The notes below the pieces were generated by a model, which worked only from the letters and a program-made list of their open reading frames with translations, had not been told where the DNA came from and made no database searches. From assembly GCA_964346665.1 (NCBI GenBank), contig CAYFVC010000026.1, positions 18,197 through 82,196 on the forward strand: a stretch of 64,000 nucleotides of DNA, given 5' to 3'. How positions within the stretch are numbered: the stretch's first letter is position 1; the number at the start of each line of letters is the position of its first letter. Shown piece by piece: positions 2,164-60,259 of the stretch. Position numbers and translations under genes: made by a program. The stretch comes from an uncultured archaeon (GTDB lineage: Archaea; Aenigmatarchaeota; Aenigmatarchaeia; QMZP01; QMZT01).

Positions 2164-3858
2164 CTACATCCTCTCCAGAGCCTCTATACCGAGCAGATTA
2201 AGGGCATTTTTCAAAACAATGGAAACAGCCTTGACTAGGGCTAGCCTAGCAGATCTCATTTCTCCCTTCGCCTTCAAAACAGGCAGAAACTGGTAAAACT
2301 CGTTGAATTTGGTCGAAATTTCGTAACAGAAATTCGCGATGTAGTGCGGTCTCATGTCATCCCCCGATTTCCTCACAACATACGGAAACTTCGATATCAT
2401 TTGAAGGAGATGTTTCTCGTGAGGTTCTTTGAGCAGGGACATGTTGAATCTCTTCGGGAATCCCTTTGCCTTTCTAAGAATAGAATTCGCGCGAGCGCAT
2501 GTATATTGTAGGTAAGGGGCGTTGTTTCCTTCGAAAGACAAAGCGTCTTCGACTCTGAAAGCATATGTTTTTTCAGGGGAAACCTTTATCATTGCGTATT
2601 TTAATGCTCCAACGCCAACACTTTCAGCTATTTTCTTTTTCTCTTTCTTCGAGTACTTCGGCATCTTTTCATTAACCGTTTTCATTGCGGTATCAATTGC
2701 TTTTTTGATCAAATCGTCCACGGATACGAATTTTCCTTCTCTCGTGGACATCGATCCCTCAGGTAATTTCAAAAACTCGTAGAAAAGGATTTCGTAATTT
2801 TTCGCCTTCTCGGGCATTATCAACTTTAGGGTGGAAACGATCTGATCGAAATACAGTTTTTGGTCACCACCCATGACGTTTATGTTGAAATCTGATTTCG
2901 ATAGTTTGTAGTTGTGGTAGGCGAGATCCCTGAGCGTGTACATTGAAGTTCCGTCAGACCTTGTCAGGTTGAATTCCCTTTCGATTCCGAATTCCTTGAG
3001 ATCAACCCATACCCTTTTCCCATCTATCTTTGCTTTGCCTGTCTTTTTTACTCTTTCAAGAATTTTCTGAACATCTTTGTTGAAAATATATTTGCTCTCA
3101 GGGGAATAATTATCTACCTTTATTCCGAGTTTATCAAAGGTTTTTTTGTGTCCTTCCAAGCATTTTTTTGTTAAAAAAGTGAAATATTTTCGTAAGGTTT
3201 TGTCTCCTTTCTCGAACCTCTGTATTATCTTCTTTACCTCTTCTTCGAGATTTTCATTTGCTTTCAGCTCTTTGTTTCCTTTTAAATAGAGGTCGAGTAC
3301 CCACCAATCTGGCTTTCCCTTAACTTTTGGTTTTTTCTTAATGTATTCCATAACGGCTATCGCAATCTGCCTTCCTGTATCGTTTACCAGGAAATCTGTT
3401 TTTACCTTGTTTCCCGCGAAGGACAGTATTCTCGCAAGGGAATCTCCAATCACGGTGTTTCTGAAGTGTCCTAAATGCAAAGGGCCGTCTGGGTTTGCTG
3501 AGGTGTGTTCCACAAGAATTCTAATCCCTTTCTTTCCTGACCCGTATTTTTTTCCCTCTTTCAGAACCTGCCCAACAACCTTCTGCCCGATCTTGTCCCA
3601 ATTCGCAGAGAAATTAAGATACCCTCCCTTTGGCTCGACCTTTGCAATCATACCGGAGGGTTTGATTTTCGAAGAGAAGTCTTTCGCTATCACGTCTGGG
3701 GGTTTTCTTAGTTTTTTCGAGACTATGAAGCAGGGGAAGGCGAGGTCCCCGAATTCGGGCTGGGGAGGTTTTTCGAGGATTATATCTTCTTTTTTGATCT
3801 TCGACTCTTTAGCTATCTTCTTCTTTACTTCATCTTTGAATTCCTCAAAAAGGTTCAT
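2164..3858 (-). CDS. argS: Arginyl-tRNA synthetase
   Basis: 564 aa with a class I HLGH motif and C-terminal anticodon-binding domain sequence typical of ArgRS (..QYTCARANSILRKA..). Confidence 0.9.
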   Translation of the reverse strand: MNLFEEFKDEVKKKIAKESKIKKEDIILEKPPQPEFGDLAFPCFIVSKKLRKPPDVIAKDFSSKIKPSGMIAKVEPKGGYLNFSANWDKIGQKVVGQVLKEGKKYGSGKKGIRILVEHTSANPDGPLHLGHFRNTVIGDSLARILSFAGNKVKTDFLVNDTGRQIAIAVMEYIKKKPKVKGKPDWWVLDLYLKGNKELKANENLEEEVKKIIQRFEKGDKTLRKYFTFLTKKCLEGHKKTFDKLGIKVDNYSPESKYIFNKDVQKILERVKKTGKAKIDGKRVWVDLKEFGIEREFNLTRSDGTSMYTLRDLAYHNYKLSKSDFNINVMGGDQKLYFDQIVSTLKLIMPEKAKNYEILFYEFLKLPEGSMSTREGKFVSVDDLIKKAIDTAMKTVNEKMPKYSKKEKKKIAESVGVGALKYAMIKVSPEKTYAFRVEDALSFEGNNAPYLQYTCARANSILRKAKGFPKRFNMSLLKEPHEKHLLQMISKFPYVVRKSGDDMRPHYIANFCYEISTKFNEFYQFLPVLKAKGEMRSARLALVKAVSIVLKNALNLLGIEALERM

Positions 3859-4762: not shown

Positions 4763-5532
4763 CGGCTCAAAACCTTCAACATTTTCTTATGCAAATATTT
4801 GTTCGCTGCAAGAATGCTTGATCTCTTCATTTCGAGTGGCTTCCCTTCAGTGGTTGTAACGATTCCGCCTGCCTCTTTCGCTATTGAGGAAGCGGCAGCG
4901 AAGTCCCATGGTTTTAGAACAAATTCCCAGTAACCATCAACCCTTCCGCACGCTACGTAACATAAATCAAGTGCTGCCGATCCTGATCTCCTTATGCCAT
5001 GGATACCCTCATAAAAAAATTCACCTATCTTCTTTAGTGTAATATTCATCTTTTGATCTCTGAAGTAATAAAACCCCGTATTTAGAAGTGAATTTTTAAG
5101 GTCTTTGTTTTTCGAAACTCTTATCCTTTTTCCGTTGAGGTACGCTCCTTTTTTCGCAAGAGAATGGAACATCTCCTTTCGCAAAGGATCGTAAACAACC
5201 CCCAGTTCCTGTTTGTTCTTCCTTACCAAGGCAATGGAAACGCAGAAGAATGGATAGCCGTGCATGAAATTCGTCGTCCCGTCAAGTGGATCGATTATCC
5301 AAAGGTTTTCGGAGTCACCTTCGCTTCTCGTTCCCTCTTCCGAAATTATTCCGTGACTTGGGAAATTCTTTCTTATTAGGGAGGTTATCAGTTTCTCTGA
5401 ATTCTTGTCCGTGTTTGTAACGAAGTCTATCTTTGTTTTGAAGTTTATTATCCTCCTTGTTTTGAATTGATTTGTTATCAACTTTCCGGCTTCTTTCGCC
5501 GCATGCATAGCGACTGAAAGCTCACGTGGCAT
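4759..5532 (-). CDS. suhB: Inositol monophosphatase / fructose-1,6-bisphosphatase family protein
   Basis: WIIDPLDGTTNF and the following GYP..SIAL motif are the IMPase/FBPase-IV metal-binding signature. The start was chosen at MPRELSVAMHAAKEAG to avoid overlap with cutA. Confidence 0.8.
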   Translation of the reverse strand: MPRELSVAMHAAKEAGKLITNQFKTRRIINFKTKIDFVTNTDKNSEKLITSLIRKNFPSHGIISEEGTRSEGDSENLWIIDPLDGTTNFMHGYPFFCVSIALVRKNKQELGVVYDPLRKEMFHSLAKKGAYLNGKRIRVSKNKDLKNSLLNTGFYYFRDQKMNITLKKIGEFFYEGIHGIRRSGSAALDLCYVACGRVDGYWEFVLKPWDFAAASSIAKEAGGIVTTTEGKPLEMKRSSILAANKYLHKKMLKVLSR

Positions 5533-5563
5533 GTAACGCATACTTGGTATGCGTCTTTTGAAA

Positions 5564-5875
5564 TTATTTTGTTTCATCCTCGATCCACTTCGTGTACTCT
5601 TTCGAACCTCCGATAATGGGGAGAGCGATGATCTCAGGGTTTTCGTATTGATGTACTTGCTTAACCCTTTTTATGAGTTTCCTCAAAACCCTTTTCTTCG
5701 TCTTCACCATAAGAAGGACTTCATCGCTTTCGTGTATCTTACCGCTCCACCAGAAAAGGGATGTGAGATTTGGAAGGATGTTCACACAAGCTGCCAGCCT
5801 TTCTTTCAACAAGATATCGGCTATCTTTTTCCCGTCCTTCGCATCAGGACACGTTATAAAAACAACTAGGTACAT
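5564..5875 (-). CDS. cutA: Divalent-cation tolerance protein CutA
   Basis: 103 aa; ..AACVNILP...S.FWW.GKI..E.L.VKT.. is the CutA1 pattern. Confidence 0.8.
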   Translation of the reverse strand: MYLVVFITCPDAKDGKKIADILLKERLAACVNILPNLTSLFWWSGKIHESDEVLLMVKTKKRVLRKLIKRVKQVHQYENPEIIALPIIGGSKEYTKWIEDETK

Positions 5876-31024: not shown

Positions 31025-31327
31025 CTATTTCTTCAAGACAAGATGTTCGGGTTTTGATATCACCTCTTTTATTTTCTTGCCAATCTTGATTTTAATTACA
31101 TATGAACTTCCCTTTTTTTCTTTCACTTCCCCTACCTTCCCTTTGAACTTCGGAAAGGGCATGCCCTTTTGGGAAGAGGGGTCTATCTTTATAACCACCT
31201 TGTCCTTTGGTTTGAATTCCTTGAGATAGGATGTAACCTTAAACTTCTGTCTAACCTTTTTCTTCAGCCTACTCCTCGTTGATCTCCTGAATCCCTTGCT
31301 CGCCTTCACCATGTCATCAATCCTCAA
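31025..31327 (-). CDS. rpl21e: 50S ribosomal protein L21e
   Basis: ..KASKGFRRSTRSRLKKKVRQKFKVTSYLKEFKPKDKVVIKIDPSSQKGMPFPKFKGKVGEV.. matches L21e (SH3-like fold). Confidence 0.85.
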   Translation of the reverse strand: MRIDDMVKASKGFRRSTRSRLKKKVRQKFKVTSYLKEFKPKDKVVIKIDPSSQKGMPFPKFKGKVGEVKEKKGSSYVIKIKIGKKIKEVISKPEHLVLKK

Positions 31328-32483
31328 GACCTATCAAATCGAATTCCTTCACATTTGCATGGTTCCCGAGGATTTTCGAGATAGATGGGTTCGTTCTCCC
31401 CGAATCCCCGGAAATCAGTTCTTTGATGTACAAACCCGATTCCGTTTTAATTTCGAATAAGTATCTTTTATTATTAATCCTTTTCCATTTTATACTTTTA
31501 ACCTTTTTGTTCTTTGTCTTTTCCGGTTTAGAAGTCAAAACCCTCTTAGGGGTTCTCTGCTTGATAACGCCTACCAATTTCTTAACCTTCTCAATTTTTT
31601 CGACTTTTTTATCGAAGTCGGCAACAACCTTGTAAACTTTGTAGGGTCTTTTTGATTTCAATCTCGAAACCTCTTCCTTGTCAGAAATTCGAAGTCCCCT
31701 AACCTTGACCCCCTTTCGTATGTTTATCTGTTTTTTTATTTCCTTGAGATTCATTTTCCTCCTAATCGGCTGCTTGATTTCGAGGATGAATGGCCTCCAA
31801 ACCAAACACCTCGCATCCTTGTCTTCCCTCCCTAGAGCGTGGAGGGTGTGGGAAGAAGCGAAAGTGACCTTCATGAAAGGTCTCGCCATTATGTCCTGAA
31901 CCGTTTGTTTGTAGCGTGGCGAATGTGTTTGTGGGAGGCCGCGAACGAATTTCTTGTATTCCCCATAAACAAAAAGCGAATTTGAAAATATCTCCGTTCC
32001 TTCGTTCTGGATATCAAAGATTATTATTACATCGGGTTTCTTGTGGTCAATCCTTTTCCCTGTCCTTTCAATTATCATCTTCCCTAGCTCCCTGCTTATC
32101 TCGGATTTTATCGGTTCGGAGTATTTCATCCCCATCTTTTCCCATAAAGTCTCCTCGTTCATGACGAGGGAATCGCTCATCTTAACCCCGATCAGAAAAG
32201 TTTCGAATTCCATGGATCTCGATGTTTTCAGAATTTTATCTGAGATTTTCGGGAGATTATCGAAAAGGTCTTCGCATACAACGCATTTCTCCTTCCCTTT
32301 TGCGAAGTTTGATGGGTCAGCCTTTATTTTTCCAGCTTCGTACTCCATTGCCAGGAATTTTCGTATTGTTTTTCCCCTCTCCCTGTTGGAGTAACCACTA
32401 AGCAGTTTTGTGAATTGCCTACCCAAGCAGGAATCGCATACATACCCTAAACTCAATATTTTAATTGCTGTTTCCTCTATCAT
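31317..32483 (-). CDS. pus10: tRNA pseudouridine synthase Pus10
   Basis: N-terminal zinc ribbon CDSCLGR...CVVCED, THUMP-like middle, and catalytic ..GREDKDARCLVWRPF.. motif. Confidence 0.8.
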   Translation of the reverse strand: MIEETAIKILSLGYVCDSCLGRQFTKLLSGYSNRERGKTIRKFLAMEYEAGKIKADPSNFAKGKEKCVVCEDLFDNLPKISDKILKTSRSMEFETFLIGVKMSDSLVMNEETLWEKMGMKYSEPIKSEISRELGKMIIERTGKRIDHKKPDVIIIFDIQNEGTEIFSNSLFVYGEYKKFVRGLPQTHSPRYKQTVQDIMARPFMKVTFASSHTLHALGREDKDARCLVWRPFILEIKQPIRRKMNLKEIKKQINIRKGVKVRGLRISDKEEVSRLKSKRPYKVYKVVADFDKKVEKIEKVKKLVGVIKQRTPKRVLTSKPEKTKNKKVKSIKWKRINNKRYLFEIKTESGLYIKELISGDSGRTNPSISKILGNHANVKEFDLIGLED

Positions 32484-34168: not shown

Positions 34169-34447
34169 GCAGGGAGCCTCCAGCCACGGGGTTAGGCCTA
34201 CCGTGCCTTCGGGCGGCAAATGGTCTTCATGGCCGGTTGTAGTTTACGGGTGGCTCTGTGATAGCCTGCAAGCCCAACCTGCCAACTGAGAAGCCTTGTC
34301 CTTCAGGGTCATCTTCATGGTGAACTGGGTCAGGGTCGGAAAGTTCGACACGTTTAGCGTGTCTTTCCCGAAAGATAGCAGCCCTAAACTATGTTGTTGA
34401 TGCTTGAAGGGTTGCAGGGTGGAGGAGGTAGATTGGATAACTTGCAG
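34169..34447 (+). ncRNA. ffs: Signal recognition particle RNA (7S RNA)
   Basis: GC-rich non-coding island about 280 nt long. Helix-8-like motif GGUGAACUGGGUCAGGGUCGGAAAG...GAUAGCAGCCCUAAAC (compare the conserved GGUCAGGUCCGGAAGGAAGCAGCC). Long-range complementarity CCUGCAAGCCC / GGGUUGCAGG (helix 5). Ends at an oligo-T run (34448-34452). Confidence 0.65.
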
Positions 34448-34534
34448 TTTTTCATGAAGTCTACTGTGAACATGCTCCCTGTTTTTTGTTTCAAAAGTTT
34501 AGAATATTTTATATGCAAGAGATAATATTTTAAT

Positions 34535-45866: not shown

Positions 45867-45946
45867 AATTATAGTTTATTCGCGAAAAGTTATAAATCTA
45901 TGTAGTTTCGGTGGACTCAGGCATAACCTGAGTCATACGCTGTTTA

Positions 45947-46061
45947 CGGGCCTGGGGGGATTCGAACCCCCGACCTTTAGCTTAGGAGGCTACTGCTCTA
46001 ATGTCGATCGTCAAGGATACAAATCCTTGACATTTGAAACTTCCAACTGAGCTACAGGCCC
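45947..46061 (-). tRNA. tRNA-Arg (anticodon CCU) with a putative intron of about 41 nt in the D-loop
   Basis: On the minus strand: GGGCCUG-UA-GCUC-AGUUGG[intron]UA-GAGC-A-GUAGC-CUCCUAA-GCUAA-AGGUC-GGGGG-UUCGAAU-CCCCC-CAGGCCC-G. Acceptor and T arms are perfect, U33 and A37 are present, and removing AAGUUUCAAAUGUCAAGGAUUUGUAUCCUUGACGAUCGACAU restores a canonical D-arm GCUCAGUUGGUAGAGC. Position 27:43 is a G.A mismatch. Confidence 0.6.
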
Positions 46062-46150
46062 ATATTTCGAGGGACGCAGGCGAAGCCTACGTCAAATGCT
46101 CTTTGGGAAAGATGCACATTAAAGTGTGCATCAACTTATCAGGTTTTTAT

Positions 46151-51918: not shown

Positions 51919-52329
51919 ATGAAATACAAGTTCATTGAGGACCTGACTTCGGACGTTGTTTTCGAGGCGTATGGAAAGGATTTAGAAGAGCTTTTTGAGA
52001 ACGCTGCTTTTGCTCTCTTCAGTGTGATATGTCAAATTGAAAAAGTCGAGCCAAAATTCGAAAAACAGATCGAAGTTGAAGGGAAAGACACGAAAGACCT
52101 TATGTTCAATTGGTTGCAAAAGCTAATAGAACTGGTTGATCTCGAAAACGTATTTCTTTCGAAATTCAAAGTGAAGGAAATCGGGGATATGCATTTGAGA
52201 GCGATATGTAACGGGGAATATGCTGATCCAAAGAAAGGAGGAACGTTAGTCAAGGCCGTGACATATTATAAATTCAACCTTGAAAAAATAGATAAAGGAT
52301 ACAAGGTAACTGTCAGCTTGGATATTTAG
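51919..52329 (+). CDS. Archease (RtcB activator/chaperone)
   Basis: ..EDLTSDVVFEAYGKDLEELFENAAFALFSVI.. is the archease N-terminal signature (ADVAFEA.G..LE.LF). 136 aa, convergent with rtcB. Confidence 0.8.
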   Translation: MKYKFIEDLTSDVVFEAYGKDLEELFENAAFALFSVICQIEKVEPKFEKQIEVEGKDTKDLMFNWLQKLIELVDLENVFLSKFKVKEIGDMHLRAICNGEYADPKKGGTLVKAVTYYKFNLEKIDKGYKVTVSLDI

Positions 52330-52349
52330 ATTATTTTGCACCCTTCATT

Positions 52350-53765
52350 TTATCCTTTGCATACGCCTATCGGAATCGCTCTGGCGACTTTCAATGAAAT
52401 CCCGATTCCGTGAACACTCTCTATCACGTCATCCACATTCTTATAAGCGTTAGGGGCTTCCTCGGCAAGAACCTTTGGGTGGGTGGATTGCGCTATGATT
52501 CCCTTCTTCGCGAGGTCTTCTTTGATTTTCCCTCCCCAAAACCTACGAATAGCAGCGTGCCTTGACATCGCACGCCCTGCCCCGTGTACCGTTGACCCAA
52601 AAGTTTTCTCCATCGCTGTTTCGTTTCCTTTCAGAATATAGCTTGATGTCCCCATTGTTCCGGCTATGAGGACTGGATCGCCTGGGAAGGAGCGTGTGCT
52701 TCCTTTTCTGTGAACATAGACTTTTCGCTTCTCCCCGTTTATTTCGTGTTCTTCTAGCTTAACAACGTTGTGACACAATCCGTATATCGTATGTAAATCC
52801 ATTGATTCCCAATCCTTTCTGAAAACCTTTTCGAACGTCTCACGGATCCACTGGGTCATGACCAAACGATTCGTAAACGAATAATTCACAGCGCATTTCA
52901 TCGCGGAAAAATAATCCTGGCCTTCCTGGGATTTCGCAGGGGCACAGGCCAATTGCCTGTCAGGCAACCAAATCTTGTATTTTTCCACTGCTTTTTCCTG
53001 TATCTTCAGGTAATCCGTTGCGACTTGGTGCCCTAAACCGCGTGAACCGCAGTGAAGCATTATCAAAACCTGATTCTCGTTTTCAATTCCCCATTTGCCA
53101 GCGACATCCTTCTCGTAGATATCCGAAACCCTCTGTATTTCAAGGAAGTGGTTACCAGCTCCCAGCGTGCCTAACTGCTGGAGACCGCGTTTCTTCGCAA
53201 GGTCTGAAACCTTCGAAGGGTCTCCCCCCTCCATTCGTCCTTTCTCTTCCATGTGTTCCTTGTCTTTTAAAACTCCATATCCATTTTCTATTGTCCATTC
53301 AACCCCTCTAACCAAAACCTGATCAAGTTGTTCGTTAGTGAGTTTCAATTTCCCCTTTGCTCCAACACCGCACGGTACCGCCTTGAAAATATTCGAGATA
53401 AGTTCGTTCAATTTTGGTTTGACTTGATCATAAGTGAGATTCGTTCTTATCGAATTCACCCCGCAGTTTATGTCGAAACCGCAGAGACCGGAGGATATTA
53501 TGCCTCTTTCAAAATCAAACGCTGAAACTGCTCCCATCGGCAAACCATATCCCCAGTGCATGTCTGGAAGTCCTATCACGGGTTCTATCACGCCCGGTAA
53601 ACATGCTACGTTCGTTAACTGCTCGATAGCGGCGTCCTCAAGAATGTTAACCACTTTTTTGTTACCTATGATCTTAGCCTTGACGTTCATCTTAGGTCTA
53701 ACGTTTTTGTCGAGTTCCCATTCATATGCTGACACCTGTTTCAATTTCTCTTTCATCCAAGACAC
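52350..53765 (-). CDS. rtcB: tRNA-splicing ligase RtcB
   Basis: 471 aa. The conserved metal/GMP-site His residues lie in ..HGAGR.. and ..HNVV.. contexts, and the ..GTMGT.. segment is present; no intein insertion. Confidence 0.9.
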   Translation of the reverse strand: MSWMKEKLKQVSAYEWELDKNVRPKMNVKAKIIGNKKVVNILEDAAIEQLTNVACLPGVIEPVIGLPDMHWGYGLPMGAVSAFDFERGIISSGLCGFDINCGVNSIRTNLTYDQVKPKLNELISNIFKAVPCGVGAKGKLKLTNEQLDQVLVRGVEWTIENGYGVLKDKEHMEEKGRMEGGDPSKVSDLAKKRGLQQLGTLGAGNHFLEIQRVSDIYEKDVAGKWGIENENQVLIMLHCGSRGLGHQVATDYLKIQEKAVEKYKIWLPDRQLACAPAKSQEGQDYFSAMKCAVNYSFTNRLVMTQWIRETFEKVFRKDWESMDLHTIYGLCHNVVKLEEHEINGEKRKVYVHRKGSTRSFPGDPVLIAGTMGTSSYILKGNETAMEKTFGSTVHGAGRAMSRHAAIRRFWGGKIKEDLAKKGIIAQSTHPKVLAEEAPNAYKNVDDVIESVHGIGISLKVARAIPIGVCKG

Positions 53766-59618: not shown

Positions 59619-59707
59619 AATTTCATATAATCAAGAAACTATTTAAATGTTTTTGTGAAGTTAATGTGAAACGAGTGATTTATATATACATTTTCACAAT
59701 ATCTCTT

Positions 59708-60259
59708 ATGAGGTGTTTTATTTCGATTGATCTCGACGAAATATTGATAAAGAAGGTGATAGAGATACAGAAAAATTTGCAAAATCTAGACATAGACGTG
59801 AAATTTGTTGAACCTGAAAACCTCCATTTCACAGTGAAATTTCTCGGTAATGTGAATGAAAATGAAGTTAATGATATAAAGGATTCCCTTAAGGAATGCC
59901 TTAAAGGGGAAAGCGAATTTAAAGTAAATGTTAATGGTATTGGTTATTTCGGAAGTACTTCTTATATAAGAACGCTGTGGCTTGGTGTAAATCAAGGTGA
60001 AGATGAACTAGTCAAGTTAATGAAAAGGGTGAATGATTGTGTGAAAATAGGTGAAGGTAATTTTTCACCACATTTGACAATAGGAAGGGTTAGATCAGGT
60101 AAAAATAGGGAAATTTTGCTGAGATTCGTAAACGAATCAAAGAACGTGGATATAGGTGAAATGTTCGTGAATAAAGTGAATTTGAAGTCAAGTGCATTGA
60201 CCAAAAAAGGTCCTATATACAACGATTTGGCTGTTTTTAAACTGGGGTCACGAAAATGA
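59708..60259 (+). CDS. thpR: RNA 2',3'-cyclic phosphodiesterase (LigT/ThpR, 2H phosphoesterase)
   Basis: Two H-x-T-x motifs (HFTVKFLG and HLTIGRV) at the spacing typical of the 2H family; start moved to MRCFISIDLD. Confidence 0.75.
   Translation: MRCFISIDLDEILIKKVIEIQKNLQNLDIDVKFVEPENLHFTVKFLGNVNENEVNDIKDSLKECLKGESEFKVNVNGIGYFGSTSYIRTLWLGVNQGEDELVKLMKRVNDCVKIGEGNFSPHLTIGRVRSGKNREILLRFVNESKNVDIGEMFVNKVNLKSSALTKKGPIYNDLAVFKLGSRK

Follow-up and report, generated by a model that had tools for sequence, protein, structure and literature searches.

The question raised by this locus is whether a tRNA-Arg(CCU) gene whose D-loop is interrupted by 41 nt can still give rise to a working tRNA and, if so, at which bases the interruption is removed. 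The gene lies in a 64-kb stretch of DNA from an uncultured archaeon (contig CAYFVC010000026.1; this whole stretch is referred to as the window). [quoted passage not shown] A non-canonical D-loop intron in this tRNA had been suggested by an earlier reading of the sequence (the original prediction), and it is borne out by the geometry of the splice motif, by the identity of the spliced product with an intronless ortholog and by covariation among orthologs.

Anatomy of the tRNA-Arg(CCU) gene

All coordinates are those of the window, the gene being read on the minus strand, and the precursor (pre-tRNA) is numbered 1-115. The gene comprises the following parts.

45947..46061, minus strand: complete tRNA-Arg(CCU) gene, 115 nt (pre-tRNA 1-115), discriminator G73 at 45947; partial Rfam match, and ARAGORN call after intron removal
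46042..46061, minus strand: exon 1 (5' strand of the acceptor stem, U8 A9, D-stem GCUC, D-loop A14-A20), from alignment with the intronless ortholog L001
46001..46041, minus strand: 41-nt intron AGUUUCAAAUGUCAAGGAUUUGUAUCCUUGACGAUCGACAU between A20 and U20a, from the BHB cut rule; excision reproduces L001 exactly
45947..46000, minus strand: exon 2 (U20a A21, D-stem GAGC, anticodon arm, variable loop, T-arm, 3' strand of the acceptor stem)
45986..45984, minus strand: anticodon CCU

In the 5' to 3' direction the pre-tRNA reads GGGCCUG UA GCUC AGUUGGA (AGUUUCAAAUGUCAAGGAUUUGUAUCCUUGACGAUCGACAU) UA GAGC A GUAGC CUCCUAA GCUAA AGGUC GGGGG UUCGAAU CCCCC CAGGCCC G. The canonical acceptor stem, T-arm (GGGGG-UUCGAAU-CCCCC), variable loop (AGGUC) and anticodon loop (CU-CCU-AA) described previously can all be read in this sequence, and the acceptor stem (GGGCCUG/CAGGCCC) consists of seven Watson-Crick pairs. 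According to ARAGORN and Rfam, the spliced-equivalent sequence forms a cloverleaf with a 7-bp acceptor stem, a 4-bp D-stem, 5-bp anticodon and T stems, U33, the anticodon CCU, G18 G19 and the T-loop UUCGAAU. The anticodon stem is topped by a G27.A43 mismatch, which is kept in the orthologs that have the GUAGC/GCUAA anticodon stem and is therefore a lineage trait rather than a sign of decay. The 115-nt RNA folds more stably than every one of 200 shuffled sequences (z = -4.09), and its minimum-free-energy structure holds the acceptor, D, anticodon and T stems together with a 10-bp intron hairpin. The intron is the only one in the window's gene, and a scan of the 64 kb for T-arm-like hairpins that might betray other hidden tRNAs returned tRNA-Arg(CCU) as the sole locus.

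Intron boundaries and the bulge-helix-bulge motif

Splice sites were assigned by the rule that two 3-nt bulges lie on opposite strands, 4 bp apart, each being cut after its second base. An exhaustive scan of the precursor revealed a single BHB whose excision restores a tRNA. It defines the intron as pre-tRNA 21-61 (window 46041..46001, 41 nt) and leaves AGUUGGAUA as the mature D-loop. The elements of the motif are listed below, with ^ marking the cut.

46044..46047, minus strand: 5' strand of the central helix, G15 U16 U17 G18 (exon), paired with CGAC at 46003-46006; across nine distinct orthologs 94% of cells are paired and one pair is compensatory (U-A to C-G)
46003..46006, minus strand: 3' strand of the central helix, CGAC (pre-tRNA C56 G57 A58 C59, intron), from the BHB scan and ortholog covariation
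46041..46043, minus strand: bulge 1, G19 A20 ^ A21 (pre-tRNA), 5' splice site after the second base; GAA invariant in 10 of 10 intron-bearing orthologs
46000..46002, minus strand: bulge 2, A60 U61 ^ U62 (=U20a), 3' splice site after the second base; A-N-U in all orthologs
46038..46040, minus strand: 5' strand of the outer helix h', GUU (pre-tRNA 22-24), paired with GAU as G.U, U-A and U.G; double compensatory changes in two of the three pairs
46007..46009, minus strand: 3' strand of h', GAU (pre-tRNA 53-55), from ortholog comparison
46010..46031, minus strand: intron hairpin GUCAAGGAU-UUGU-AUCCUUGAC, 9 bp, in the minimum-free-energy fold and the centroid; orthologs have a hairpin of unrelated sequence here

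The other outer helix, h, is the D-stem itself (GCUC/GAGC), offset by an A14.A63 mismatch (in pre-tRNA numbering; A63 is A21 of the tRNA). Both 3-nt bulges and the 4-bp helix are in register (3-4-3), each bulge lies 3' of its helix strand, and in-register helices of 4 bp and 3 bp arise in just 0.44% of shuffled introns. The check proposed for the original prediction, namely whether the junctions fold into a BHB or relaxed BHB, thus yields a near-canonical motif in which GUUG/CGAC is set between the bulges GA^A and AU^U. The 8-bp hairpin GUCAAGGA/UCCUUGAC noted earlier is present and extends to 9-10 bp. The insert had been placed between G19 and U20; its length of 41 nt stands (the string quoted for it has 42 nt), but its position moves to A20/U20a, the 5' site lying one base further 3'.

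The spliced product and its detection by standard tools

ARAGORN identifies the 74-nt product of splicing as tRNA-Arg(cct), and its sequence is base-for-base that of the intronless L001 gene, which scores 71.5 bits in Rfam; the unspliced gene obtains only 34.7 bits from the Rfam tRNA model. This Rfam match (45947-46026, minus strand) skips 23 nt and misuses GGAUUUG of the intron as the acceptor 5' strand, with non-standard pairs, so that the gene is understated by 35 nt. ARAGORN reports zero tRNA genes in the full 64-kb window, and among thirteen loci tested it finds a tRNA in just the two that are intronless. When introns are allowed, its output for the 115-nt sequence is a class II tRNA-Ser(CGA) with a 24-nt anticodon-loop intron and a long variable arm, a model to which we attach next to no weight, since its D-stem comprises 3 bp with a G.U, its anticodon stem contains an A.A mismatch, the real anticodon arm is used as the variable arm, and the intronless orthologs at this locus are plain tRNA-Arg(CCU). 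The serine model is an artefact that arises because the intron is forced into the anticodon loop.

Intron-bearing orthologs fare no better with these tools. For example, Rfam at E <= 1 reports no tRNA over the 20.7 kb of locus L138 (1-20762), from a relative of the window organism, though a two-intron ortholog of the tRNA-Arg gene is present there. Thus an essential tRNA gene is overlooked by ARAGORN and half-misread by Rfam, and its two-intron ortholog escapes Rfam entirely. The tRNA complements of metagenome-assembled DPANN genomes will be under-counted without intron-aware searches, and the tool failures on this gene fit the published remark that complete tRNA sets are not predictable in some DPANN genomes (PMC5829648).

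Conservation of the splice motif among orthologs

Orthologs were collected by a metagenome scan with the sequence from the anticodon to the T-arm and from contigs encoding MinD homologs. The gene order PheS-PheT-MinD-tRNA-LTD-CBS-PPDK is common to all comparison loci, which identifies the compared tRNA genes as orthologs. Ten distinct orthologs possess an intron at the same D-loop site (the window, L003, L078, L021, L113, L122-124, L125/126, L127/128, L133 and L134/135). These introns are 26-46 nt long and their sequences are mostly unalignable; all ten fit the template GCUC-A-G(U/C)UG-GA^A ... NNNN-AN^U-A-GAGC. In a core alignment of nine distinct versions, on which the template register was imposed in a manner that favours the model, standard pairs make up 96% of cells; sliding the 3' partners by 1-3 columns lowers this figure to 28-53%. 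At three pairs both bases have changed in a compensatory manner: in the central helix, for example, U16-A is replaced by C16-G, and in h' the first pair occurs as A-U, G-C or G.U and the second as C-G, U-A or G-C. The h' helices of the orthologs are stronger than that of the window (3-5 bp), with the exception of L127. The covariation score of 0.354, compared with 0.242 for shuffled alignments, is attained by 2 of 500 shuffles. Covariation among the orthologs therefore points to a splice motif that is maintained by selection, and its recurrence in nine other orthologous loci, taken with the fold z-score and the rarity of in-register helices among shuffled introns, argues against chance.

The same comparison bears on the exact position of the splice sites. 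Were 41 or 42 nt to be removed between G19 and U20, the mature D-loop would read AGUUGGUA, as originally proposed, and the tRNA would have 73 nt. ARAGORN accepts this product too as tRNA-Arg(cct), and AGUUGGUA is a common D-loop, but no BHB puts the cuts at these positions, and the orthologs without a D-loop intron read AGUUGGAUA (L001, L129-131 and L136) or AGUUGGACA (L002), never AGUUGGUA. Furthermore, GA^A ... AN^U is found in each of the ten intron-bearing orthologs and gives GGA-UA on splicing, and the G19/U20 version would delete A20, generally known as an arginine identity nucleotide in many systems. It is very unlikely that the gene is spliced in this manner; the BHB cut and the intronless orthologs agree on AGUUGGAUA.

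The original prediction also named a pseudogene as its alternative. In that case the insert could be a hairpin repeat that entered the D-loop and stays in the transcript, leaving the locus without a working tRNA product. Such a fate would be in keeping with the failure of standard tRNA finders on the gene, and the insert weakly resembles a hairpin module found outside it (12.9 bits, E = 0.23). On the other hand, the exons match the intronless ortholog at 100% identity and every stem is intact, the gene is the sole tRNA-Arg(CCU) candidate in the syntenic locus of every relative, and genes for the ligase RtcB and its cofactor archease are present. Above all, ten lineages have kept the insert at this site, and compensatory changes in them have preserved the splice motif; this conservation contradicts a pseudogene, which we regard as highly improbable.

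Several observations, in addition to the imposed register of the alignment, weigh against a functional BHB intron. In the thermodynamic ensemble the central-helix pairs have a probability of about 15%, h' is weak in the window copy (3 bp including two G.U, with an ensemble probability of <3%), and an A.A mismatch lies between bulge 2 and the D-stem. The minimum-free-energy structure pairs G19.U55, leaving a 10-nt bulge, and the BHB conformer is 1.8 kcal/mol less stable than this minimum (-42.9 vs -44.7 kcal/mol). The central helix contains a U.U mismatch in two orthologs (L021 and L122), and L127 lacks an h' adjoining bulge 1, its 5' site being located in an internal loop (a relaxed form). Finally, the splicing endonuclease EndA was not found in the 64-kb window, either with Pfam on 51 of 68 open reading frames or in tblastn and phmmer searches with Methanocaldococcus jannaschii EndA, a query validated against PDB 1a79. 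Thermodynamics permits the BHB fold without selecting it, and it is the comparative data that carry the argument. The motif in the window stands between the strict hBHBh' and the relaxed forms and, with its near-canonical 3-4-3 geometry, is nearer to the strict form.

Intron turnover within one orthologous gene

Alignment of each ortholog to the 74-nt mature sequence revealed further inserts, and loci without any, as follows.

L122-124: D-loop intron, and 17-18 nt inserted in the anticodon stem (30/31)
L125/126 and L127/128: D-loop intron, and 64-94 nt inserted in the T-loop
L129-131: T-loop insert alone
L136: 18-nt insert at about 28/29 and 12-nt insert at the canonical 37/38 position; no D-loop intron
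L001/L111/L137 and L002: no introns

The T-loop inserts span 59-94 nt across L125-L131. In a rough single-gene neighbour-joining tree of MinD, the D-loop intron is present in most branches and absent at three separate places, a pattern that implies at least three losses, or several gains, of this intron. A single orthologous gene with introns at five positions among some fifteen close relatives constitutes a compact natural data set on intron gain and loss. The intron is most simply regarded as a tolerated, evolutionarily unstable insertion, probably without a function of its own. With respect to an intron-encoded box C/D guide RNA, neither RUGAUGA nor CUGA occurs in the 41-nt intron and there is no match to an Rfam snoRNA.

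Both forms of the gene coexist in one sample, since L132 (the window organism, intron-bearing) and L137 (L001-like, intronless, with identical exons) were both derived from sequencing run ERR2564004. A contig of this run carries a MinD gene 100% identical to that of the window. More distant examples were also encountered. Locus L044 (metagenome contig Ga0114931_10003737) encodes, about 78 nt upstream of the match, a distant tRNA-Arg(CCU) with the D-stem GCGC, a D-loop beginning AGUCUGG and a D-loop insert of about 50 nt, for which a GUCU/GGAC central helix and a UACU/AGUA outer helix are plausible, the site probably being 19/20. The unrelated metagenome loci L008 and L028 have a tRNA-Arg(CCU) with an insert in or before the anticodon stem, and in L102 and L104 there is no recognisable 5' half within 220 nt of the tRNA-Arg(CCU), so that long introns or split genes are possible.

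A hairpin module in the flanks and introns

Sequences flanking the tRNA gene contain a module of about 39 nt with the consensus cAGCGUAUGAC, a 9-bp stem-loop and then GUCCAUCGAAAC; its core is GCG(U/A)AUGAC, the 9-bp stem-loop and GUCC(A)YCGAA. An alignment of nine copies has a mean column identity of 77% and shows compensatory substitutions within the stem. Two covariance models were built, R1 from the nine aligned copies and R2, as a guard against circularity, from the leader, trailer and spacer copies only. The copies outside the gene in the window are listed below.

46063..46101, minus strand: module in the 5' leader, GAGCAUUUGACGUAGGCUUCGCCUGCGUCCCUCGAAAUA; R1 47.6 bits; ends 1 nt before G1 of the tRNA
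45904..45942, minus strand: module in the 3' trailer, CAGCGUAUGACUCAGGUUAUGCCUGAGUCCACCGAAACU; R1 51.1 bits; begins 4 nt after G73 (45943-45946 lie between)
5527..5565, plus strand: fourth copy of the module; R1 31.5 bits, E = 2.8e-7; outside the training set

The leader and trailer copies bracket the tRNA in the same orientation. Among the orthologous loci, the module occurs just 3' of the tRNA in L125 and L001 as well as in the window, and just 5' in L136, L002, L125 and the window; the leader copy of L136 is homologous to that of the window and has the same spacing from the 5' end of the tRNA. The CGAW-N4 spacing is shared, as judged by eye, by a second copy in L002 and by a looser hairpin in the leader of L133, neither being scored by either model. 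The copy at 5527-5565 is located in the spacer between a CutA-like gene (5564-5875, minus strand; labelled by eye, without a Pfam scan) and an inositol monophosphatase gene (4759 to ~5540, minus strand). It is antisense to both of these unrelated genes, which argues for a repeat at the DNA level over an RNA signal.

The module is also found inside the D-loop introns of L127/128 and L122. In sister genomes it makes up the whole of a D-loop intron and part of a T-loop intron, and modules near-identical to the two that bracket the tRNA of the window form the D-loop intron of L127/L128. A hand comparison of alignment rows gives 31 of 39 identical positions between the trailer copy of the window and the D-loop intron of L128. 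R2 matches the D-loop introns of L128 (43.6 bits, E = 2e-9) and L127 (34.9 bits, E = 5e-7) and, more weakly, those of L122/124 (17.7 bits), L125 (15.3 bits) and L003 (13.9 bits). In the 20.7-kb locus L138, all four module matches fall within the tRNA locus, namely in the leader, the D-loop intron, the T-loop intron and the trailer. The window's own intron aligns to R1 from end to end (46039..46000) at the weak score given above, and is the next-best independent match with filters off. Unrelated loci from archaea and bacteria, about 450 kb in total, contained no match to R1. When viral contigs were scanned with the loose pattern ATGAC-N(12-30)-GTCCAYCGAA, all 120 among the matches listed had either no hairpin or weak chance stems.

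These similarities are most simply explained by common descent, the flanks and the intron of this locus being related through duplication, and the kinship of D-loop introns with flanking hairpins suggests a link between a duplicating element and the origin of introns. We put forward only tentatively the stronger proposal that the D-loop intron is one copy of a small duplicating hairpin element, and that such modules seed BHB introns when inserted or copied into tRNA genes. An intron would be born where a module lands in a tRNA gene at a place at which a few flanking bases complete a BHB, and the introns at five positions in one ortholog would record this process. Copying may have proceeded from flank to intron or from intron to flank, the copies in the window being those of this one locus and a single one in a spacer. 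If true, this would provide a concrete DNA-level source for the gain of archaeal tRNA introns, the mechanism of which has been described as unknown (PMC4090602).

Other roles for the module were considered and rejected. A kink-turn or box C/D-like motif fails on inspection: GCG-UAU-GA-C on the 5' side would suit the bulged strand of a kink-turn, but the 3' strand lacks the required GA beside the closing stem. A BHB of the leader and trailer modules with the acceptor stem, which might serve EndA in trimming the tRNA ends, finds no support, as the acceptor is only extended by about 3 bp with no terminal bulges. It is also unlikely that the modules are terminators, as they are not consistently followed by a T-run and, in L127/128, this module is located within an intron.

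Proposed splicing pathway and neighbouring genes

The ligation components named in the original prediction, RtcB and archease at a distance of 6 kb, are identified by Pfam at 5.9-6.3 kb from the tRNA.

52350..53765, minus strand: RtcB RNA ligase (Pfam PF01139, E = 8.5e-157)
51919..52329, plus strand: archease, RtcB cofactor (Pfam PF01951, E = 7.3e-36)

In the proposed pathway, G15-G18 of the exon would pair with CGAC of the intron in the precursor to form the 4-bp central helix flanked by 3-nt bulges. By analogy with the established archaeal pathway, EndA, presumably encoded outside the window, would cleave each bulge 3' of its second base, with a 2',3'-cyclic phosphate and a 5'-OH as the resulting ends. 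RtcB and archease would then join the exon halves into the 74-nt tRNA with the D-loop AGUUGGAUA, the predicted junction being ...CUCAGUUGGA^UAGAGCAG... (GUUGGA^UAGAGC), and would probably also circularise the excised intron. Self-splicing as a group I or group II intron was rejected, as the insert has 41 nt compared with a catalytic core of hundreds, and there is no match to an Rfam intron in the window. Given that the motif is near-strict, with both bulges and the 4-bp helix, the need for an endonuclease of relaxed specificity is plausible rather than demonstrated. DPANN lineages with an alpha4 EndA carrying an extra 'L3' loop are reported to show more disruption of tRNA genes (PMC5829648), an association that this intron fits.

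With the splice site corrected, exon 1 ends in A20 and this base is retained in the mature tRNA. It often serves as an arginine identity element and is located in the part of the D-loop that is commonly read by arginyl-tRNA synthetases (ArgRS). The ArgRS encoded in the window carries the N-terminal domain (Pfam PF03485), which contacts the D-loop in known structures, and it is possible that the retained A20 and this domain are functionally linked.

The assignment to the Aenigmarchaeota follows the adjacent MinD-like protein, whose homologs at 74-86% identity are named Candidatus Aenigmarchaeota by their sources. Other genes of the window are of archaeal type, including those for both subunits (alpha and beta) of phenylalanyl-tRNA synthetase (PheRS), a class II synthetase, ArgRS, RadA, Pus10 and ribosomal protein L15e. 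Several genes related to tRNA or to the healing of RNA ends are gathered in this 64-kb stretch, namely the divergent pair of archease and RtcB (51919-53765), a LigT-like 2H phosphoesterase (59666-60259), Pus10 (31317-32483) and ArgRS (2164-3858), in addition to PheRS alpha/beta and another class II synthetase. Look-ups of the proteins encoded at both edges of the window returned no record. An archaeal signal recognition particle (SRP) RNA is located at 34170-34481 on the plus strand; its 92.9 bits fall below the Rfam gathering threshold of 96.5, so that a scan at this threshold misses it.

Comparison with known systems

D-loop introns have been documented, and cleaved in vitro, in Methanopyrus kandleri tRNA-Glu(UUC) (position 20b/21) and Aeropyrum pernix tRNA-Thr(UGU) (PMC5829648, PMC3241643). 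Like these, the intron described here is short, is located in the 3' part of the D-loop, uses the D-stem as one outer helix and would be spliced by protein enzymes that recognise the motif independently of the mature tRNA body, with ligation of the RtcB type. It differs from them in its position (20/20a), in the tRNA concerned and in its occurrence in the Aenigmarchaeota. In addition, the motif of the M. kandleri intron is of the relaxed HBh' type, without one of the bulges, and is cut poorly by strict enzymes (PMC5829648), whereas the window intron keeps both bulges and the 4-bp helix. With the canonical intron at 37/38 (strict hBHBh') it shares the 3-4-3 geometry, the cut rule and presumably the enzymes; in contrast to that intron, the D-stem rather than the anticodon stem serves as an outer helix, an A.A mismatch abuts bulge 2, and h' has 3 bp.

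Non-canonical introns and multi-intron tRNA genes are known from the Thermoproteales, Korarchaeum, Nanoarchaeum, M. kandleri and ARMAN/Micrarchaeota (Sugahara 2008; Fujishima 2011; PMC4033280, PMC5829648, PMC3241643, PMC3239211). The Aenigmarchaeota are not among the lineages named in these surveys. The orthologs analysed here resemble the systems of Thermoproteales, Korarchaeum, Nanoarchaeum and ARMAN, which are tied to lineages whose EndA has extra loops, in the many positions occupied, in the presence of up to two introns per gene (in sister genomes) and in rapid gain and loss. What sets the present case apart is that a single orthologous gene varies in this way among close relatives (D-loop, 28/29, 30/31, 37/38 and T-loop). 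In the Thermoproteales, similar introns are described as having spread among tRNA genes by an unknown mechanism (Fujishima et al. 2010, as cited in PMC4090602 and PMC4033280). As far as these accounts of that work go, both cases appear to involve related sequences at different places, which would imply spread at the DNA level, but the likeness in the Thermoproteales is between introns of different tRNA genes, whereas here it is between introns of sister genomes and hairpin modules in the leader, trailer and an intergenic spacer. A protein-spliced D-loop BHB intron is thus of an already known kind and ordinary for a specialist, and it is the intron polymorphism of a single ortholog, together with the kinship of introns and flanking hairpins, that adds interest to this locus.

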